Positions 608 to 47,077 of a stretch of 64,000 bases of DNA are shown one piece after another. This DNA comes from an uncultured Candidatus Saccharibacteria bacterium. GTDB taxonomy: Bacteria; Patescibacteriota; Minisyncoccia; Phycocordibacterales; UBA5272. Made by a program: the position numbers and the translations under genes. The notes beneath the pieces are model-generated. The model was not told the DNA's origin. It did no database searches and saw only the letters and a list, made by a program, of their open reading frames with translations. The stretch lies in NCBI GenBank assembly GCA_964510805.1, contig CAZEDG010000001.1:48227-112226 (forward strand), written 5' to 3'. Within the stretch, counting starts at the first letter, position 1; each line of letters opens with the position of its first letter.

Positions 608-735
608 AATGAAGACTAGATGTTGGACGTTAGACTTTAGATATTAGAAAATACAGAAAACACAAAGAACGAAGCCCTCAGCTTTGCTCTAACTAATAAC
701 CAATTACGAATTACGAGTGGTATACTATCTTTACT

Positions 736-8318: not shown

Positions 8319-8379
8319 GAAAGACGACAGAATACTGACTAGATTTTAGAGATTAGACTTTAGGTATTAGTTGGGCACA

Positions 8380-8420
8380 GAATACAAAGAGCGACGCCGT
8401 AGGCGTCGCTCTTTGTATTC
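8380..8420 (+). terminator. rho-independent terminator, conserved hairpin family
   Basis: 19-bp perfect stem gaatacaaagagcgacgcc / ggcgtcgctctttgtattc, loop gta, T-rich tail. Confidence 0.7.
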
Positions 8421-8601
8421 TTAGTTATGTTTTTGCTTTTTGTTTTCATTCTTCATTCCTCCCTCTTTTCCTAATATCTAAAGTCTAATATCTACTATCT
8501 AGTCTTGTGTCGACTAACTCCCCACAATTTGTTATGATGGCTGTATGAATGTATTATAGTGGTGACTAATTACGAATAACTAATAACGAATAACTATCCC
8601 T

Positions 8602-10059
8602 ATGGCATCCCTCGAAGAACTTAAGCAATCTCGCATAAAAAAATTAGAAGCGCTTAAAGAGCGTGGGTATGTACCGTATCCAAGCAAGGCCAAGACAACT
8701 CACACCCTCAAAGAGCTTACTCATTCTTTTGCTTCACTTGAAAGTTCTCACGAAGTTGTTACTGTAGCAGGTCGTGTCATGTCATCACGTGGGCAAGGCG
8801 CTCTTGTTTTCTTTGATCTCTACGATGGTACCGCAAGACTTCAGTCAGTAATTAAGCTTCCAGAGTCAGGGGAAGTTGCTCACGCTTTTTATAATGAATT
8901 TGTTGATATCGGTGATTTTGTTTCTGTGACAGGGACAGCTTTTGTCACCCGTTCAGGTCAACCAAGTATTCTTGTGTCAGAGGTTTCTATGCTTTCTAAG
9001 TCACTTCTTCCTCTTCCTGATAAGTATCACGGGATTCAAGATGAAGAGCTTCGTATGCGTGAGAGATATCTTGATATCCTTACTAACGGAGAGCTTCGTG
9101 ATCTTTTTGAAAAGAAGGCTAAGTTTTGGAATGTGGTGAGAACTTTTCTTGGTGAACGAGGATTTCTTGAAGTTGAGACGCCAACTATCGAAATTACAAC
9201 AGGAGGCGCAGAAGCAAGACCTTTCAAAACATATCACAATGATTTTGATCTTAACGTGTTTATGCGTATTTCGATTGGTGAACTTTGGCAAAAACGCCTC
9301 ATGTCTGCAGGATTTCCAAGAACATTTGAGATAGGGCGAGCATACCGTAATGAAGGTTCTTCACCGGAACATGTACAAGAATTTACTAACTGTGAATTCT
9401 ATATGGCGTATGCTAATTATGAGGATGGTATGAAACTTGTTGAGGAGTTGTATCGAAGAATTGCACAAGAGGTGTTCGGTACTACCATCTTTACGACACG
9501 TGGGCATACTTTTGACCTGTCAGAGGAATGGAGACGTGTTGACTATAGGGAAGAGATTCTTAAGCAGACAGGTATCGATATCATGAAAGCAACAGATGAA
9601 GAGATTGTTACTAAACTTCAATCACTGCATGTAAAGTATGACGGCACGAATCGCGAGAGACTTACGGATACACTTTGGAAATATTGCCGTAAGCATATTG
9701 CTGGACCTGCTTTTCTTATTAACCATCCGCTTCTTGTTGCTCCGCTTGCAAAAGCAAATGAAGACGGTGTTACTGCACAAATATTCCAGCCAATCTTAGC
9801 AGGAAGCGAAATTGGAAAGGGGTATAGTGAGTTAAATGATCCAATTGATCAACGTGAGCGCTTCGATAAACAGCAAGAACTACTTGCCTCCGGTGATGAA
9901 GAAGCTATGATGGCGGATGATTCTTTTGTTGAAATGCTCGAGCATGGTATGCCTCCTACATGTGGATTTGGTTTTGGTGAACGATTATTTGCTTTTCTTG
10001 TAGATAAACCAATTCGTGAAGTGCATATGTTCCCACTTGTAAAACCGAAAGGAGAATGA
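8602..10059 (+). CDS. lysS: lysyl-tRNA synthetase, class II
   Basis: Class II aaRS motifs; N-terminal OB anticodon-binding domain. Confidence 0.9.
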   Translation: MASLEELKQSRIKKLEALKERGYVPYPSKAKTTHTLKELTHSFASLESSHEVVTVAGRVMSSRGQGALVFFDLYDGTARLQSVIKLPESGEVAHAFYNEFVDIGDFVSVTGTAFVTRSGQPSILVSEVSMLSKSLLPLPDKYHGIQDEELRMRERYLDILTNGELRDLFEKKAKFWNVVRTFLGERGFLEVETPTIEITTGGAEARPFKTYHNDFDLNVFMRISIGELWQKRLMSAGFPRTFEIGRAYRNEGSSPEHVQEFTNCEFYMAYANYEDGMKLVEELYRRIAQEVFGTTIFTTRGHTFDLSEEWRRVDYREEILKQTGIDIMKATDEEIVTKLQSLHVKYDGTNRERLTDTLWKYCRKHIAGPAFLINHPLLVAPLAKANEDGVTAQIFQPILAGSEIGKGYSELNDPIDQRERFDKQQELLASGDEEAMMADDSFVEMLEHGMPPTCGFGFGERLFAFLVDKPIREVHMFPLVKPKGE

Positions 10060-10126
10060 AGAGTGAAGAGTGAAGTTAATACATAAATCCTAAATTAAAG
10101 ATAACAGATTACAGATAGAAGTACAT

Positions 10127-10155
10127 AAAGAGCGACACCGTAGGTGTCGCTCTTT
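10127..10155 (+). terminator. rho-independent terminator, same hairpin family with a compensatory base-pair change
   Basis: aaagagcgacacc-gta-ggtgtcgctcttt. Confidence 0.6.
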
Positions 10156-10294
10156 GTATTTACAACCTCACTCCTCATGCTTCTTGCCTCATTCTCTCCA
10201 CTATCCACACTTTTCTTTCTCTTTTTACTACAAAGTGGGGTATAATGGGTTCAAGTGGGGGGAAGTGGGAGATTTTCCACCACTTACGACCGTT

Positions 10295-10729
10295 ATGCTT
10301 ATCGGAAAGTACACACACGACCTAGATCCAAAGAAACGCCTCACTCTACCTTCAAAGTGGCGAAATGATCTTGGTAAAAAAGTTGTAGTGACAAGCGGTC
10401 TTGACGCATCGCTGTTTATTTTTCCGATACAAGAATGGGAAGTTGTTGCACAAAAACTTGCTTCATCTTCCTTTGGTAATCAAGATACTCGTAGCTTCAA
10501 TCGTTTTATCCTTGGTAATGCCTTCGAAACTGACGTAGATGCTTCTGGACGTATCGTGATACCTGATTCACTTAAATCATTCGCTCACCTTAGCGAAAAA
10601 GTTGTTCTCGCAGGAATGTATTCCCGTGTAGAACTCTGGGATGAAAAAGCTTGGGAAGCAAATATTTCTAAGGTTAACGGTGAAGCCGATATCTTAGCTT
10701 CTCGTTTAAGTGAGTTAGGAATCTTATAA
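10295..10729 (+). CDS. mraZ: transcriptional regulator MraZ
   Basis: Duplicated MraZ fold; first gene of the dcw cluster. Confidence 0.8.
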   Translation: MLIGKYTHDLDPKKRLTLPSKWRNDLGKKVVVTSGLDASLFIFPIQEWEVVAQKLASSSFGNQDTRSFNRFILGNAFETDVDASGRIVIPDSLKSFAHLSEKVVLAGMYSRVELWDEKAWEANISKVNGEADILASRLSELGIL

Positions 10730-18284: not shown

Positions 18285-18495
18285 CAAGAGCTATCTCTCT
18301 AAAAACACTATGAAATTTTTTAACTACACTATTGAAGTCAAGCAAGCAGATCAAGTGATTAAACAAAGCGAACTCATCCATATCAGTAGAATTGGAGACT
18401 TCGCAAAAAGAATCGCCTAAAAAAGTATTAACCATCAACCGCTTCCTTGTATTTACCAATTACTAATAACGAATTACTAATAACCATTAACTAAC

Positions 18496-21123: not shown

Positions 21124-21261
21124 TCGAGGTATGAGCACGGGAAAGGCATTAACATCTCTCCCGTGTTTTATTTTTTTATACTCAAATTACTTTTTATGGT
21201 ATGATGTCTCGTACCTGTATCTCTATCTATTAACCATTAACTATAAACTATTAACCACAGT

Positions 21262-25624: not shown

Positions 25625-27544
25625 ATGACTGTTAATGAAATTAGACATAAGTTTCTTCGCTATATGGAGAGCAAGGGGCATGTAGTTGTTCCTTCTGCTT
25701 CCCTTGTTCCGGAGAATGATCCAACGACACTCTTCACAGGAAGTGGCATGCAACCGATGCTTCCGTATCTACTAGGGCAACCTCATCCACTTGGCACTCG
25801 TATTGCTGATTCTCAGAAGTCTTTTCGTTCACAAGATATTGAGGAGGTGGGTGATAATCGTCATACAACATTCTTCGAGATGCTCGGTAATTGGTCTTTT
25901 GGTGATTATTTTAAAGAAGAAGAGATTAGATGGATGTTTCATTTTCTTACGGAAGAATTGAAGCTTAACCCTGAGAATCTTTATATTACTTGTTTTTCGG
26001 GGAATGATGCGCTTAATGTGCCAAGAGATACTTTTTCGGCTGAGTTGTGGCAGAGGCTTTTTTCTGCAAAAGATATTGACGCGCTCATAAGTGATACACC
26101 AGAACTTGGAATGAAGTCAGGTGAGAGAATCTTTTATTATGGAGAGAAGAAAAATTGGTGGAGTAGATCAGGTGTGCCACAGAATATGCCAGAAGGAGAG
26201 CCTGGTGGTCCTGATTCTGAGATGTTCTATGATTTTGATCCTGATGCAAAGAAAGGAATGCATGCGAGCTCTCAGTGGGCACATGAGCCATGTCATGTGA
26301 ACTGTGACTGCGGAAGATTCCTTGAGGTTGGTAACAATGTCTTTATGCAGTACAAGAAAGCTGAAGGAGGTTTTAAAGAGCTTCCTCAAATGAATGTTGA
26401 TCATGGTTCTGGTCTTGAGCGCTACGTGTCTGCGGTTCGTAATGATCCGGATATTTTTAATATTGATGTTTTTGATATTCCAAAAGAAGTGATTAAACGT
26501 CTCTCAAATCATCCATACGAAGAGAGTGCACAGGTTATGTACGCGTATCGCGTAATTCTTGATCATATTAGGTCAGCCACATTTCTTATTGGGGATGGTG
26601 TTATGCCTGGCAATAAAGATCAGATGTACTTCGTACGTCGTCTGGTAAGACGCGCAGTTCGGTTTGCGCGCAATCTTGGAATTGAAGTTAATTTTACTCG
26701 AGAAATTGCTAAGGCTTTTATTTCTGTGTACAAGGATGCGTATAGCAATCTTGGAGAAGGAGAAGAACAGATTCTTTCTGCTCTTGATAAGGAGGAATCC
26801 AAGTTCCGTGTGACCCTAGAAAAGGGTATGAGAGAGTTCGAGAAGATTGCAAAGGATCATATCTCCGGTAAGGACGCCTTTGACCTCCTTCAGTCATATG
26901 GTTTTCCTATTGAGCTTACAGAAGAACTTGCATACGAACGAGGGCTTCAGGTAGATAGGGTTGGTTTTGAAGAAGAAAAGAAAAAGCACGCAGAGGAGTC
27001 TCGTACTGCGTCTTCTGGTAAGTTCAAAGGTGGCCTTGGAGGGGACGGTGATATGGAAGTGAAGTATCATACTGCGACACATCTCCTTCACGAAGCGCTT
27101 CGTCAGGTGCTCGGTGAATCAGTTGCTCAGAAGGGGTCGAATATTACACCCGAGCGACTTCGTTTTGATTTTTCTTTTGATCGTAAGATGACAGATGAAG
27201 AGAAGAAGCAGGTAGAGGATATTGTTAATAGTCGTATTCGTGATGCGCTTCCTGTTACTCGCGAAGAGGTGAGTATTGATGAGGCAAGAGCTCTTGGAGC
27301 AATCGGATTATTTGGAGATAAGTATGGTGATACAGTAAGTGTGTATCGCGTAGGGTCAGGTAAGAGACGAGGAGAGGGAAGTCTTTTCTCGATTGAGTTC
27401 TGTGGTGGGCCTCATGTAGAGAACACGCGAGAGCTTGCCGTGTCACTCCTTCCTAACGGAACGATGCTTGAAGATGTCTTTAAGATCGCAAAAGAAGAAG
27501 CAGTATCTCAAGGTGTAAGAAGAATCAAGGCGGTGCTTCAATAG
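25625..27544 (+). CDS. alaS: alanyl-tRNA synthetase, short form lacking the C-Ala domain
   Basis: N-terminal catalytic similarity (FFEMLGNWSFGDYFK); editing HxxxH (HTATHLLHEAL) and CGGPH. Confidence 0.85.
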   Translation: MTVNEIRHKFLRYMESKGHVVVPSASLVPENDPTTLFTGSGMQPMLPYLLGQPHPLGTRIADSQKSFRSQDIEEVGDNRHTTFFEMLGNWSFGDYFKEEEIRWMFHFLTEELKLNPENLYITCFSGNDALNVPRDTFSAELWQRLFSAKDIDALISDTPELGMKSGERIFYYGEKKNWWSRSGVPQNMPEGEPGGPDSEMFYDFDPDAKKGMHASSQWAHEPCHVNCDCGRFLEVGNNVFMQYKKAEGGFKELPQMNVDHGSGLERYVSAVRNDPDIFNIDVFDIPKEVIKRLSNHPYEESAQVMYAYRVILDHIRSATFLIGDGVMPGNKDQMYFVRRLVRRAVRFARNLGIEVNFTREIAKAFISVYKDAYSNLGEGEEQILSALDKEESKFRVTLEKGMREFEKIAKDHISGKDAFDLLQSYGFPIELTEELAYERGLQVDRVGFEEEKKKHAEESRTASSGKFKGGLGGDGDMEVKYHTATHLLHEALRQVLGESVAQKGSNITPERLRFDFSFDRKMTDEEKKQVEDIVNSRIRDALPVTREEVSIDEARALGAIGLFGDKYGDTVSVYRVGSGKRRGEGSLFSIEFCGGPHVENTRELAVSLLPNGTMLEDVFKIAKEEAVSQGVRRIKAVLQ

Positions 27545-27590
27545 ATAGATGAGATAGATGGTAGATTTTAGACGTTAGATATTAGAAAAG
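27541..27590 (+). repeat. seven tandem TAGNNNN heptads (TTAG-type stop repeat)
   Basis: atagata gatgaga tagatgg tagattt tagacgt tagatat tagaaaa, immediately after the alaS stop. Confidence 0.7.
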
Positions 27591-30334: not shown

Positions 30335-30452
30335 ATAAAAATAGACCCTAGAAATTATGGTATTTTTTAATACCTAAGATCTAACATCTATTGTCTAGTC
30401 CCGCAGATTTGCATTATTTATTAAGGTGTAGTATAATTTAACCCACATTTCT

Positions 30453-37572: not shown

Positions 37573-37620
37573 ATTTTTTCTATTAACTATCAACCATTAA
37601 CTATTAACTGAATTTATATT

Positions 37621-45299: not shown

Positions 45300-45512
45300 T
45301 TTTTTGAGATTGAGTTAACTTGTTTACTTTATGCAAAGTGTGTTAGTATGATCTAAGCGTTGATGGAACTGACAAATCCGGAGCCTTATTTAATAAAAAC
45401 AAGAGTGGTCACACTAAGTGGCAAGGTACGGTGGCACCGCGGTTCCCGTAATCGTCCGTACATAGAATACTTCGTAGTTTTGTGAAGTGCTCTATGTACG
45501 GACTTTTACTTT
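45300..45512 (+). promoter_or_regulatory. T-box riboswitch leader for aspS
   Basis: Conserved T-box sequence AGGTACGGTGGCACCGCGG (45424-45442); terminator ccgtacatag/ctatgtacgg (45456-45501); candidate GAC specifier in aactGACaaat. Confidence 0.6.
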
Positions 45513-46925
45513 ATGACTAGAATATATTGCAAGGACCTTTCTTCACATGTTGAACAAGAGGTGACTGTACAGGGTTGGATCGATGTGCGTCGTGATCAGG
45601 GGAAGATGATCTTCCTTGATCTTCGTGATGTAACAGGGAAGGTGCAAGCAGTTGCTCTACCTTTTCACACAGAAGCAAAAGAAGTTGCTGAGAAGGTTCG
45701 CCCTGAGTGGGTTGTTGAGGTTAAGGCTAAGGTTAATAAGCGTCCAGAGAAGAATGTCAAAGCAGATACCCTTAATGGTGACATTGAGCTTGAAATTCTT
45801 ACTATCACAATTCTTAATGAGGCAACCACCCCAGCATTTGATATCTCAACTAGTGGTTATGAGGTAAACGAAGAAGTAAGACTTGAGAAAAAGTATCTTG
45901 ATCTTCGTCGAAAGAGACTTCAAGATAATGTGATTATGCGACATAAGGTAATTAAGATGATTCGCGATGAGCTTGATAAGCAGAACTTTTTTGAAATAGA
46001 GACACCACTTCTTACTAACCCGACACCCGAAGGATCACGGTCATATCTTGTGCCTTCGCGTATTTGGCAGGGGAATTTTTATGCACTTCCACAATCACCA
46101 CAACAGTATAAGCAACTTCTCATGTCTTCTGGATTTGAACGATACTTCCAGATTGCAAAATGTATGCGTGATGAGGATACTCGTGGTGATCGTCAACCAG
46201 AGTTCACTCAGATGGACCTTGAGATGAGTTTTGTGAAGCGCGAAGATGTAATGAGGGTGAATGAAGAATTGCTTATTACAATCGTACAAAAACTTTTCCC
46301 TAAGAAGCGTATTCAACAAGTGCCGTTCCCTGTGTTTACCTATAAAGAGGTGATGGAGAAGTATGGATCTGATAAGCCTGATATTCGTAATGATAAGAAT
46401 GATCCTGATCTTCTTGCATTCTGTTGGGTTGTTGATTTTCCGGCATTCGAAAAGACAGGAGAAGATAACGTGGACGGGACAGGAGAGTGGACCTTTACTC
46501 ATAACCCATTCACTGGTGTCAAAGATGAATGGAAGCAGTCGCTTCTTGAAAAAAAGAATATTGCTGATATCGTATCAACACAGTATGATGTTGCACTCAA
46601 TGGGTATGAGATTGGTGGCGGTGGAATACGTCTTCATGATCCTGCAATGCTTCGCAAAGTGTTCGAGATTATGGGGTATGATGATGAACGCATCGAAAGA
46701 AACTTCGGGCACATGCTAACCGCGCTTGGCTCAGGCACTCCTCCACACGGAGGTATTGCGTGGGGGCTTGATCGCTTCCTTATGATACTTCTTAATGAGC
46801 CTAATATTCGCGAAGTAATGGCATTTCCGAAGACAGGTGAGGGTAAGGACCTCCTCATGCAGGCTCCGGCCCCTGCAAGCCAAAAAACCATGCGTGAGCT
46901 TGGTATAGAAGTGAAGGGGAAGTAG
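45513..46925 (+). CDS. aspS: aspartyl-tRNA synthetase
   Basis: Class II motifs (FFEIETP, RDED, GGGIRLHD); short bacterial/archaeal-like form. Confidence 0.9.
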   Translation: MTRIYCKDLSSHVEQEVTVQGWIDVRRDQGKMIFLDLRDVTGKVQAVALPFHTEAKEVAEKVRPEWVVEVKAKVNKRPEKNVKADTLNGDIELEILTITILNEATTPAFDISTSGYEVNEEVRLEKKYLDLRRKRLQDNVIMRHKVIKMIRDELDKQNFFEIETPLLTNPTPEGSRSYLVPSRIWQGNFYALPQSPQQYKQLLMSSGFERYFQIAKCMRDEDTRGDRQPEFTQMDLEMSFVKREDVMRVNEELLITIVQKLFPKKRIQQVPFPVFTYKEVMEKYGSDKPDIRNDKNDPDLLAFCWVVDFPAFEKTGEDNVDGTGEWTFTHNPFTGVKDEWKQSLLEKKNIADIVSTQYDVALNGYEIGGGGIRLHDPAMLRKVFEIMGYDDERIERNFGHMLTALGSGTPPHGGIAWGLDRFLMILLNEPNIREVMAFPKTGEGKDLLMQAPAPASQKTMRELGIEVKGK

Positions 46926-46929
46926 GTTT

Positions 46930-46959
46930 AGGGAGTGAGGAATGAAGAATGAGGAATGA
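46930..46959 (+). repeat. (GAATGAG)n heptad repeat (TGA-type stop repeat)
   Basis: gagtgag gaatgaa gaatgag gaatgag directly after the aspS stop. Confidence 0.7.
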
Positions 46960-46968
46960 GGTTGCAAG

Positions 46969-46997
46969 AGAAGAGCGACGCCGTAGGCGTCGCTCTT
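46969..46997 (+). terminator. rho-independent terminator, conserved hairpin family
   Basis: gaagagcgacgcc-gta-ggcgtcgctcttc. Confidence 0.65.
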
Positions 46998-47077
46998 CTT
47001 AACTTTGATTGACAAAAAGTATTATATTATGTAGTATAATTATTAGTTTTGGGAATCAAAAAATGGAAGGAACCAAA

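Follow-up and report, generated by a model that had tools for sequence, protein, structure and literature searches.

GARTGAR heptanucleotide repeats around conserved terminator-like hairpins in a Candidatus Saccharibacteria genome fragment

The stretch of DNA considered here comprises 64,000 nucleotides of an uncultured Candidatus Saccharibacteria bacterium (contig CAZEDG010000001.1, positions 48,227 to 112,226 of the forward strand) and is referred to as a whole as the window. Next to the stop codons of its genes lysS and aspS, short tandem repeats are found whose seven-nucleotide unit, GARTGAR (R, purine), contains a TGA. These heptads are one family of short, degenerate heptanucleotide tandem repeats in intergenic spacers, which are organised around bidirectional-looking Rho-independent terminator hairpins. 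A purine-rich array without C lies 5' of the hairpin against the gene end and its complement, if present, lies 3'; where the complement is present, either strand reads array, hairpin and inverted array. As a whole, the arrays are tentatively read as terminator-flanking heptanucleotide repeats which originated by slippage or templated copying and act as spacer and stem extension, with stop codons that are incidental or permissive.

TGA arrays in the window

Four TGA arrays are present in the window (Table 1), two of them at or just after the stops of lysS and aspS and two as reverse-complement copies in the greA-lysS and lysS-mraZ spacers. In all four cases (4/4), a copy of the conserved hairpin follows 12-55 nt downstream when the strand of the array itself is read. 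The initial, sequence-only reading of a separate repeat family that has a period of 7 nt and is linked to this hairpin is borne out. The copy that it had reported from the greA-lysS spacer is present. It had also correctly placed an array behind the aspS stop, though about 3 nt away from the true position, and its list lacked the fourth array at 10167-10200 on the minus strand. A supposed short version behind the first gene (605-616) turned out to be a single GAATGAA unit heading a TAG-type array, and approximately 45 such units are expected by chance. The proposed distance of at most about 30 nt to the hairpin applies to aspS, where the array begins 7 nt past the stop and ends 12 nt ahead of the hairpin core, but not to lysS with 55 nt. 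For the copy in the greA-lysS spacer, the hairpin is situated on the opposite side when the plus strand is read, and 32 nt onward on the strand of the array itself. No copy of the hairpin exists near 605-616; the window contains three copies in total.

A search for three successive GARTGAR units with at most three mismatches yielded seven overlapping matches at four loci compared to 0.11 expected, and none of 100 shuffled sequences reached that number. In contrast, the bare pattern TGA-N4-TGA-N4-TGA was only weakly enriched in the window (4 found vs. 1.07 expected). What is repeated is therefore the complete purine heptad, not the TGA alone. Mutual identity amounts to 0.76-0.90 for the four TGA arrays and to 0.71-0.89 for six TAG arrays.

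At lysS, the array opens at the stop codon as had been described, the first unit supplying the TGA at 10057-10059. Together with the subsequent TGAs at 10064-10066 and 10071-10073, three different frames are stopped, which confirms for lysS that the 7-nt period places TGA in every frame. This TGA is a genuine stop and is read as such in this genome, because LysS is as long as in relatives whose gene ends in TAG or TAA. The last two residues of LysS differ from those of the relatives, at the place where the degenerate first unit overlaps the final codons.

A connection of the arrays to aminoacyl-tRNA synthetase (aaRS) genes and to highly expressed genes had also been suggested. Two arrays indeed abut aaRS stops, but overall heptad arrays occur at only three of the six aaRS genes. 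Three of the five sense-oriented arrays follow aaRS genes, with a hypergeometric P of ~0.004 among all genes and ~0.04 among genes with a terminator spacer. The aaRS link is treated as weak because of the latter value and because the lysS array is absent in relatives. The link to highly expressed genes failed, the rpsM-rpsI ribosomal-protein operon and dnaK being without arrays.

Table 1. Heptad arrays, terminator-like hairpins and adjoining genes in the window.
Feature	Position	Strand	Remarks
lysS coding sequence	8602-10059	+	lysyl-tRNA synthetase, 485 aa
lysS TGA-heptad array	10054-10075	+	GAATGAA GAGTGAA GAGTGAA G; without any C
Degenerate unit GAAAGGA	back to 10047	+	prolongs the lysS array into the final lysS codons
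lysS stop TGA	10057-10059	+	given by the first array unit
Inverted TGA array, lysS-mraZ spacer	10167-10200	-	minus strand GAATGAG GCAAGAA GCATGAG GAGTGAG G
aspS coding sequence	45513-46925	+	
aspS stop TAG	46923-46925	+	own stop of the gene; position conserved in relatives
aspS TGA-heptad array	46933-46961	+	GAGTGAG GAATGAA GAATGAG GAATGAG G
Inverted TGA array, greA-lysS spacer	8443-8466	-	minus strand GAGGGAG GAATGAA GAATGAA AA
Terminator-like hairpin	8379-8421		20-bp stem; exact core copy AGAGCGACGCCGTAGGCGTCGCTCT (8388-8412)
Terminator-like hairpin	10127-10155		13-bp stem; core copy (10130-10152) with compensatory G:C to A:T change
Terminator-like hairpin	46969-46999		14-bp stem; exact core copy AGAGCGACGCCGTAGGCGTCGCTCT (46972-46996)
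TAG(A) array after greA	8337-8370 (8337-8376 for the whole TAG(A)nnT stretch)	+	5' arm of 34-nt, 88% complementary inverted pair around hairpin
Inverted TAG(A) array	8471-8504 (8471-8505 for the whole TAG(A)nnT stretch)	-	3' arm of greA-lysS pair
Other TAG(A)nnT arrays	605-653, 27542-27590	+	
Other TAG(A)nnT arrays	2768-2805, ~30380-30410	inverted	
TAA/AAC-type heptads	8563-8597, 18453-18481, 21223-21258, 37579-37610, 688-719		8563-8597 at lysS, 37579-37610 at dnaK
TAA/AAC-type heptads	2320-2352	inverted	

The conserved hairpin and its flanks

The three hairpin copies of the window possess G+C-rich stems of 13-20 bp with the flanks ACAAAGAGC...GCTCTTTGT, A-rich ahead of the stem and T-rich behind it, and thus the anatomy of Rho-independent terminators, to which the arrays contribute flanks and not the stem. 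The copy at 8379-8421 was also detected by a terminator scan. Its 25-nt core, AGAGCGACGCCGTAGGCGTCGCTCT, occurs in exact form at 31 loci of about 20 metagenome-assembled genomes (MAGs) of Patescibacteria, with flanks that vary between copies and stay palindromic. This conservation of the core far exceeds what is expected of an ordinary terminator. Two variants keep the CCGTAGG loop with compensatory changes in the stem, namely the copy at 10130 of the window and GGGGCACCGTAGGTGCCCC in L014 (minus strand, ~1620-1660). Beyond the window, a further 300 kb of Patescibacteria DNA contained few GARTGAR-like arrays, with two matches; in L014, a covarying hairpin that shares the CCGTAGG loop comes straight after the array.

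The surroundings of the hairpin are polar. Around 34 copies in Patescibacteria, TAG heptads point toward the hairpin in a ratio of 15:1 and TGA heptads in a ratio of 3:0, compared to 0-2 for control triplets. The 5' flanks are rich in A and G, with more G than C in 24 copies vs. the reverse in 8, and the 3' flanks are rich in T and C, with more C than G in 25 vs. the reverse in 7.

In the predicted fold of the lysS-mraZ spacer (-47.1 kcal/mol, z = -5.96), both TGA arms are paired around the hairpin. The inverted arm, separated from the hairpin by 16 nt, shows 71-83% complementarity to the array at 10047-10077. For the greA-lysS spacer, a fold of -80.1 kcal/mol (z = -10.45) is predicted, in which the arms are provided by the TAG arrays.

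Heptad families and spacer layout

The period of seven stands out among the lags. Lag-7 self-similarity was detected in 11 regions of the window, all intergenic, vs. 0-3 regions at the other lags scanned (4-12), and in 30 regions across 346 kb vs. 0-10. Three heptad families, built on TAG, TAA and TGA, can be distinguished in the window. Members of the TAG(A) family follow three genes (the first gene, greA and alaS), and inverted copies precede promoters; the inverted arm of the greA-lysS spacer, for instance, is situated just ahead of the promoter-like site TCGACT-17-TATGAT (8510-8538) of lysS. The TAA/AAC family mostly lies directly upstream of start codons, and the TGA family 3' of lysS and aspS, with inverted copies beyond the hairpins. 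The recurring order of a spacer is stop codon, C-poor array, hairpin, G-poor inverted array, promoter-like TGnTATAAT, TAA-type array and ATG.

The TAA/AAC-type heptads (AATTACG, AATAACT, TTAACCA) are free of G and adjoin start codons that have no Shine-Dalgarno sequence. They resemble the TAACTGA repeats preceding start codons in Beggiatoaceae and may serve as unstructured translation leaders. A further type, built on CAGA (ACAGATT ACAGATA; TAACAGA TAACAGA CGACAGA), takes the same position from stop to hairpin at 10104-10122 of the window and in 3' regions of L014 and L158, and some of its units contain no stop codon.

GARTGAR arrays in metagenomes and inside genes

A scan of metagenomes for three GARTGAR units revealed at least 120 loci on contigs with a GC content of 35-69%. 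Among the matches listed, a complementary partner (≤ -20 kcal/mol, within 150 nt) was located downstream of 28 of 108 arrays and upstream of none. Where neighbours could be called among these matches, the left neighbour was a sense-oriented open reading frame (ORF) in 38 cases vs. 9. A lack of enrichment near stop codons had been named beforehand as the outcome that would refute the proposal, but enrichment was found: 29 of the 38 sense-oriented arrays among the matches listed lie within -20 to +26 nt of the stop of the upstream ORF, and 12 supply this stop.

A sub-family consisting of (GAGTGAA)n followed by GAATTTGC lies in frame inside conserved genes, on the strand that is open in all frames. 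The genes concerned encode CTP synthase (pyrG, in Prevotella), a C13 peptidase, a GH2 beta-galactosidase and a T9SS-tail protein. In the direction of the genes, the element reads (TTCACTC)n-GAATTTGCNGCCGC (contigs L127, L123, L153 and L077) and encodes 'AAANSSLFTLHSSL', an insert which, itself or in variants, is present in many CTP synthase homologues, with other homologues of 530 aa being without it. Since insert-bearing and insert-free homologues coexist, the arrays behave as insertional DNA at least in these Prevotella genes. The in-gene element is also reminiscent of the Rickettsia palindromic elements (RPEs).

Turnover between relatives

The same strain was recovered from three other samples, and the four contigs are 100% identical; no copy-number polymorphism was seen among these contigs of one strain. 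Relatives with 81-84% LysS identity retain the synteny of greA, lysS and mraZ. TGA heptads 3' of lysS were not found in three such relatives. Of these, only L032 retains a TAG(A) array behind greA, whereas both L032 and L033 retain TAA/AAC heptads ahead of the ATG of lysS. Behind aspS, the relative L159 (from the set with 84-86% identity) carries other stop-bearing heptads, TAAcgag TAAagtg TAAaatg TAGatat, which begin at the stop codon, L158 carries TAACAGA units and L160 no heptads. Heptads of unrelated sequence hence occupy the same position after aspS in three of four genomes. The spacers of relatives with 81-86% protein identity are unalignable, and boundaries of insertions are not definable in them. 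In Patescibacteria, the consensus of the TAG heptads is specific to the genome, with TAGA in the window and L032, TAGGTT in L003 and L010, TAGCTT in L005, L027 and L028, and TAGGG in L009 and L025.

Possible functions and origins of the arrays

Judged from the anatomy alone, the arrays would be cis-acting flanks of terminators. The 5' array could form a single-stranded, C-free spacer in the 3' untranslated region (3'-UTR) ahead of the hairpin, and where an inverted copy exists, the paired arms would extend the palindrome of the terminator to a long stem with imperfect pairing. In bidirectional terminators, the hairpin is preceded by an A-tract or other purine-rich RNA and followed by a U-tract or other pyrimidine-rich RNA, the latter forming weak RNA:DNA hybrids. 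The polarity of the arrays, purine 5' and pyrimidine 3', would mirror this asymmetry of A-tract and U-tract, and the polarity rule is the strongest hint of a function. The period could stem from replication slippage or templated copying, which would favour heptanucleotides in bacteria. As to the stops, the array would be tolerated on a gene end because translation stops within 17 nt and the hairpin is never entered by ribosomes.

Several observations weigh against these proposals. No inverted partner exists for the aspS array, for which a single-stranded state is predicted, and the TGA copy at 8443-8466, 32 nt beyond the hairpin, is an orphan without a partner arm, unpaired in a predicted internal loop; stem extension is therefore not the whole story. 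Arrays accompany only some terminators, as dnaK, rpsI and other genes have a hairpin without an array. Arms of the same spacer are no more alike than arrays of different spacers (0.79-0.89 identity). Selection for pairing is therefore not apparent, and on the same ground the idea that both arms of a spacer co-evolve was rejected. The fast turnover of arrays between relatives is equally compatible with dispensable DNA and with a function.

The stops themselves were first taken for the purpose of the repeats, and a selected barrier, in which the heptads halt read-through or frameshifted ribosomes before the terminator hairpin or the mRNA 3' end, would be the corresponding explanation. It appears unlikely. 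In its favour, stops point at the hairpin from both sides, arrays begin at or a few nt from stops in the window as well as in metagenomes, the three families of the window are built on TAG, TAA and TGA, and the different heptads after aspS in L159 still hold stops and start at the stop codon. Likewise, all frames are closed after 27 nt at lysS, after 20 nt at aspS and after 20-31 nt for array-bearing genes. Nevertheless, a general tendency to three-frame closure is missing, with only 16/40 of the 3' regions in the window beating their own shuffles (median of 61 vs. 66 nt); the quick closers are exactly the array-bearing genes, and many regions never close within the stretch examined (up to 120 nt downstream, or the spacer if shorter). 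Furthermore, the stops are not preserved: among 147 single-mismatch units of GARTGAR, the number of variants at T4 (12) and A6 (11) is close to that at A2 (13), and in TAG arrays the stop-destroying CAG and TGG (12 together) outweigh the stop-preserving TAA (3). Half of the TGA arrays are reverse complements beyond the hairpin, and in co-directional spacers their stops fall on the antisense strand. Other heptad inverted pairs are flat for stop polarity (11:12), whereas their 5' arm has more G than C in a ratio of 14:4, and the stop-free GGGAATC repeats share the layout. Finally, as 7 = 1 (mod 3), any stop-bearing heptad reaches every frame in at most 17 nt, and stops in three frames arise by themselves without selection. 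Evidence from closure, variants, turnover and the stop-free precedent thus all speaks against three-frame stopping as a purpose, and the stops are best regarded as incidental or merely permissive, a by-product of the 7-nt arithmetic. They do explain the placement of the arrays, given that a stop-bearing array can abut or overwrite a gene end and that the opposite orientation survives in frame inside genes.

The same placement would follow if the arrays, perhaps including the hairpin, were selfish or insertional DNA without a cis function which spreads by slippage, gene conversion or mobility, as the strand with the stops is tolerable as sense only at the extreme 3' end of genes and would be filtered onto stops. 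We regard this as possible and worth keeping in mind, though doubtful. Arrays across loci fit one consensus as well as arms of the same spacer (0.76-0.90 identity), the consensus differs between genomes of Patescibacteria, relatives have no array after lysS and other heptads after aspS, and about 20 MAGs share the 25-nt hairpin core in identical form. Insertion is further suggested by the in-frame (TTCACTC)n in pyrG and the other three genes with insert-free homologues, and variant units decay without their stops being preserved. However, neither a transposase nor a Y1/RAYT domain nor a target-site duplication was seen in the examination of the 64-kb window and its proteins. The strict inward polarity (15:1; 28:0 among the matches listed) would demand a fixed unit of array, hairpin and array, yet many arrays are single. 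The recurrence of unrelated heptads behind aspS in three of four genomes points to a local constraint or hotspot and not to the spread of copies, and the identity of four samples of one strain speaks against hypervariable arrays.

Binding of an oligomeric protein comparable to HutP or TRAP, which would recognise regularly spaced triplets in RNA or DNA and control termination or the fate of the mRNA, would account for the strict period and core and for the variation of the other positions of the TAG family across genomes. HutP binds UAG-N4-UAG-N4-UAG beside a terminator, TRAP reads GAG or UAG triplets, and the arrays, with the same period of seven, lie immediately 5' of the hairpin; a genome-specific consensus would also fit co-evolution with a binding factor. 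Such a role is nonetheless very unlikely. The triplet of the TGA family is UGA, embedded in a purine heptad that is fully conserved (to R), and not UAG, and a candidate gene for the protein is lacking in the 64-kb window. A lineage-specific factor would not explain the same GARTGAR array on contigs with 35-69% GC including Prevotella, and the inverted copies and in-frame copies in genes are hard to square with RNA binding. A role of the C-rich, G-poor inverted arrays in Rho loading (rut) is an attractive candidate which was set aside. A mini-ORF or 'RTGA start-stop conveyor', with ATG or GTG overlapping TGA and GGAG or GAGG resembling a Shine-Dalgarno sequence, was dropped as well, since the spacing between this sequence and ATG is only ~1 nt at lysS and the TAG family is without such a feature. 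It is also conceivable, but quite improbable, that the arrays form a natural 'insulator cassette' extending from Patescibacteria to Bacteroidota, in which an all-frame stop array faces a bidirectional terminator from both sides and the conserved hairpin of Patescibacteria is the dedicated core. Ribosomes and RNA polymerase would then both be halted at the boundaries of transcription units, and the inward polarity would be a signature of selection.

Further observations in the window

Searches of the whole window with Rfam and ARAGORN revealed no RNA family above the gathering score and no tRNA or tmRNA. The 64 kb contain six aaRS genes and a ribosomal-protein operon, and tRNA and tmRNA genes are nevertheless missing. 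Upstream of aspS, a T-box-like leader (45351-45462, plus strand) scored 41 bits (E = 1e-7), which is below the Rfam gathering score of 93. It features a very short stem I region and the motif GGTGGCACCGCGG, followed by a terminator-like hairpin, and L158 and L160 have kept this motif ahead of their aspS genes.

Three AAGTGGG(G/A) direct repeats at 10233-10275 flank the -10 box of the promoter-like site TGGGGTATAAT upstream of mraZ (10295-10729). Both L032 and L033 have retained these repeats, which resemble an operator for MraZ. Between 57184 and 58229, 1 kb is devoid of ORFs of at least 80 aa; two short hydrophobic ORFs, MITLTTPATILCFLIAFIIGGLVGGIGAWKLVEAK and MLTFTIPAFILFLVTFFCGGIIFGVWILLYKIK, are followed by AT-rich non-coding DNA.

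Significance

In many bacteria, intergenic heptanucleotides are the most over-represented of the long simple repeats. The present case adds a new phylum, the genome-reduced Patescibacteria, as well as a close physical association with a terminator hairpin that is conserved and a quantified polarity rule, according to which the purine- or stop-rich arm is placed 5'. Additionally, it demonstrates that the GARTGAR unit recurs in very different bacteria, even in frame in Prevotella genes. If the arrays modulate termination or the stability of 3' ends, they would constitute a widespread component of bacterial terminators that is missed in annotation. Should they be selfish, they would exemplify how stop-bearing repeats are filtered onto gene ends, where they can mislead readers into inferring a purpose.

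Comparison with known repeat systems

REP and BIME elements are short dispersed intergenic repeats 3' of genes, each species having its own consensus, which form inverted hairpin pairs and act on termination or mRNA stability. REPs are palindromic and mobilised by RAYT transposases, and RPEs of Rickettsia also occur in frame inside genes. The arrays share with REP and BIME the dispersed copies, a family consensus, the position after genes and the inverted pairs, and related Prevotella arrays are placed in genes as RPEs are. Unlike REPs, the arrays are direct tandem heptads without an internal palindrome, and no RAYT was present among the proteins of the 64-kb window. Fail-safe or tandem stops are in-frame stops soon after the primary stop, which are statistically enriched across genes. 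The arrays likewise provide extra stops soon after that of the gene; in contrast to fail-safe stops, they are periodic, cover all frames and belong to few genes only, a general enrichment being absent from the window (16/40).

Short tandem repeats of seven nucleotides, termed STRR, were reportedly described from cyanobacteria by Mazel in 1990. As with STRR and other long simple sequence repeats (SSRs), the arrays are heptanucleotide and intergenic, and polymerase slippage is the proposed origin. Classical SSRs are perfect and variable in copy number, whereas the GARTGAR arrays comprise 3-4 units, are degenerate at R and are identical in four samples of the same strain. According to the summaries given of Mrazek (2007), heptanucleotides are the most over-represented class of long SSRs in many bacteria (PMC4679880; PMC4692102), and slippage was proposed to account for the preference for 7 nt (PMC4692102; PMC4679880).

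TAACTGA direct repeats were described in marine Beggiatoaceae, Cyanobacteria and Bacteroidetes (MacGregor, 2015; PMC4679880). Like the GARTGAR arrays, they are heptamer tandems with stops in all forward frames and an open reverse orientation, and their phylogenetic distribution is patchy. Because all forward frames are stopped, such repeats are confined to intergenic DNA or gene ends. They are situated mostly a few nt upstream of starts, which matches the TAA/AAC heptads of the window and not the TGA family; moreover, they are perfect repeats of one fixed unit for which no association with terminators was described.

The closest precedent is given by the heptameric intergenic repeats of Xanthomonas (GGGAATC) and Nostoc (GGGGAYT), 89-93% of which are intergenic (Rehm et al., 2015; PMC4692102). 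On the coding strand, they follow stop codons at a distance of 0-50 bp, and they are arranged as convergent inverted pairs (PMC4692102). The GARTGAR arrays agree with them in the 7-nt unit, in short and often degenerate tandem arrays in intergenic DNA, and in frequent convergent inverted pairs able to form stem-loops. The Xanthomonas and Nostoc repeats also vary in length and sequence between close relatives; in the relatives compared here, at 81-86% protein identity, the spacers hold other heptads or none. The Xanthomonas and Nostoc units are rich in G and free of stops, and a G-quadruplex role was proposed for them, whereas GARTGAR has no G-runs and one TGA per unit. Furthermore, the GARTGAR arrays differ in flanking a separate conserved terminator hairpin and in their host, which belongs to the Paceibacterota. 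A literature search found no description of heptad repeats in Patescibacteria, and searching with the array sequences returned only unrelated primers. By their unit, copy number, excess over chance and intergenic placement at gene ends, the arrays belong to the class of intergenic heptanucleotide tandem repeats.

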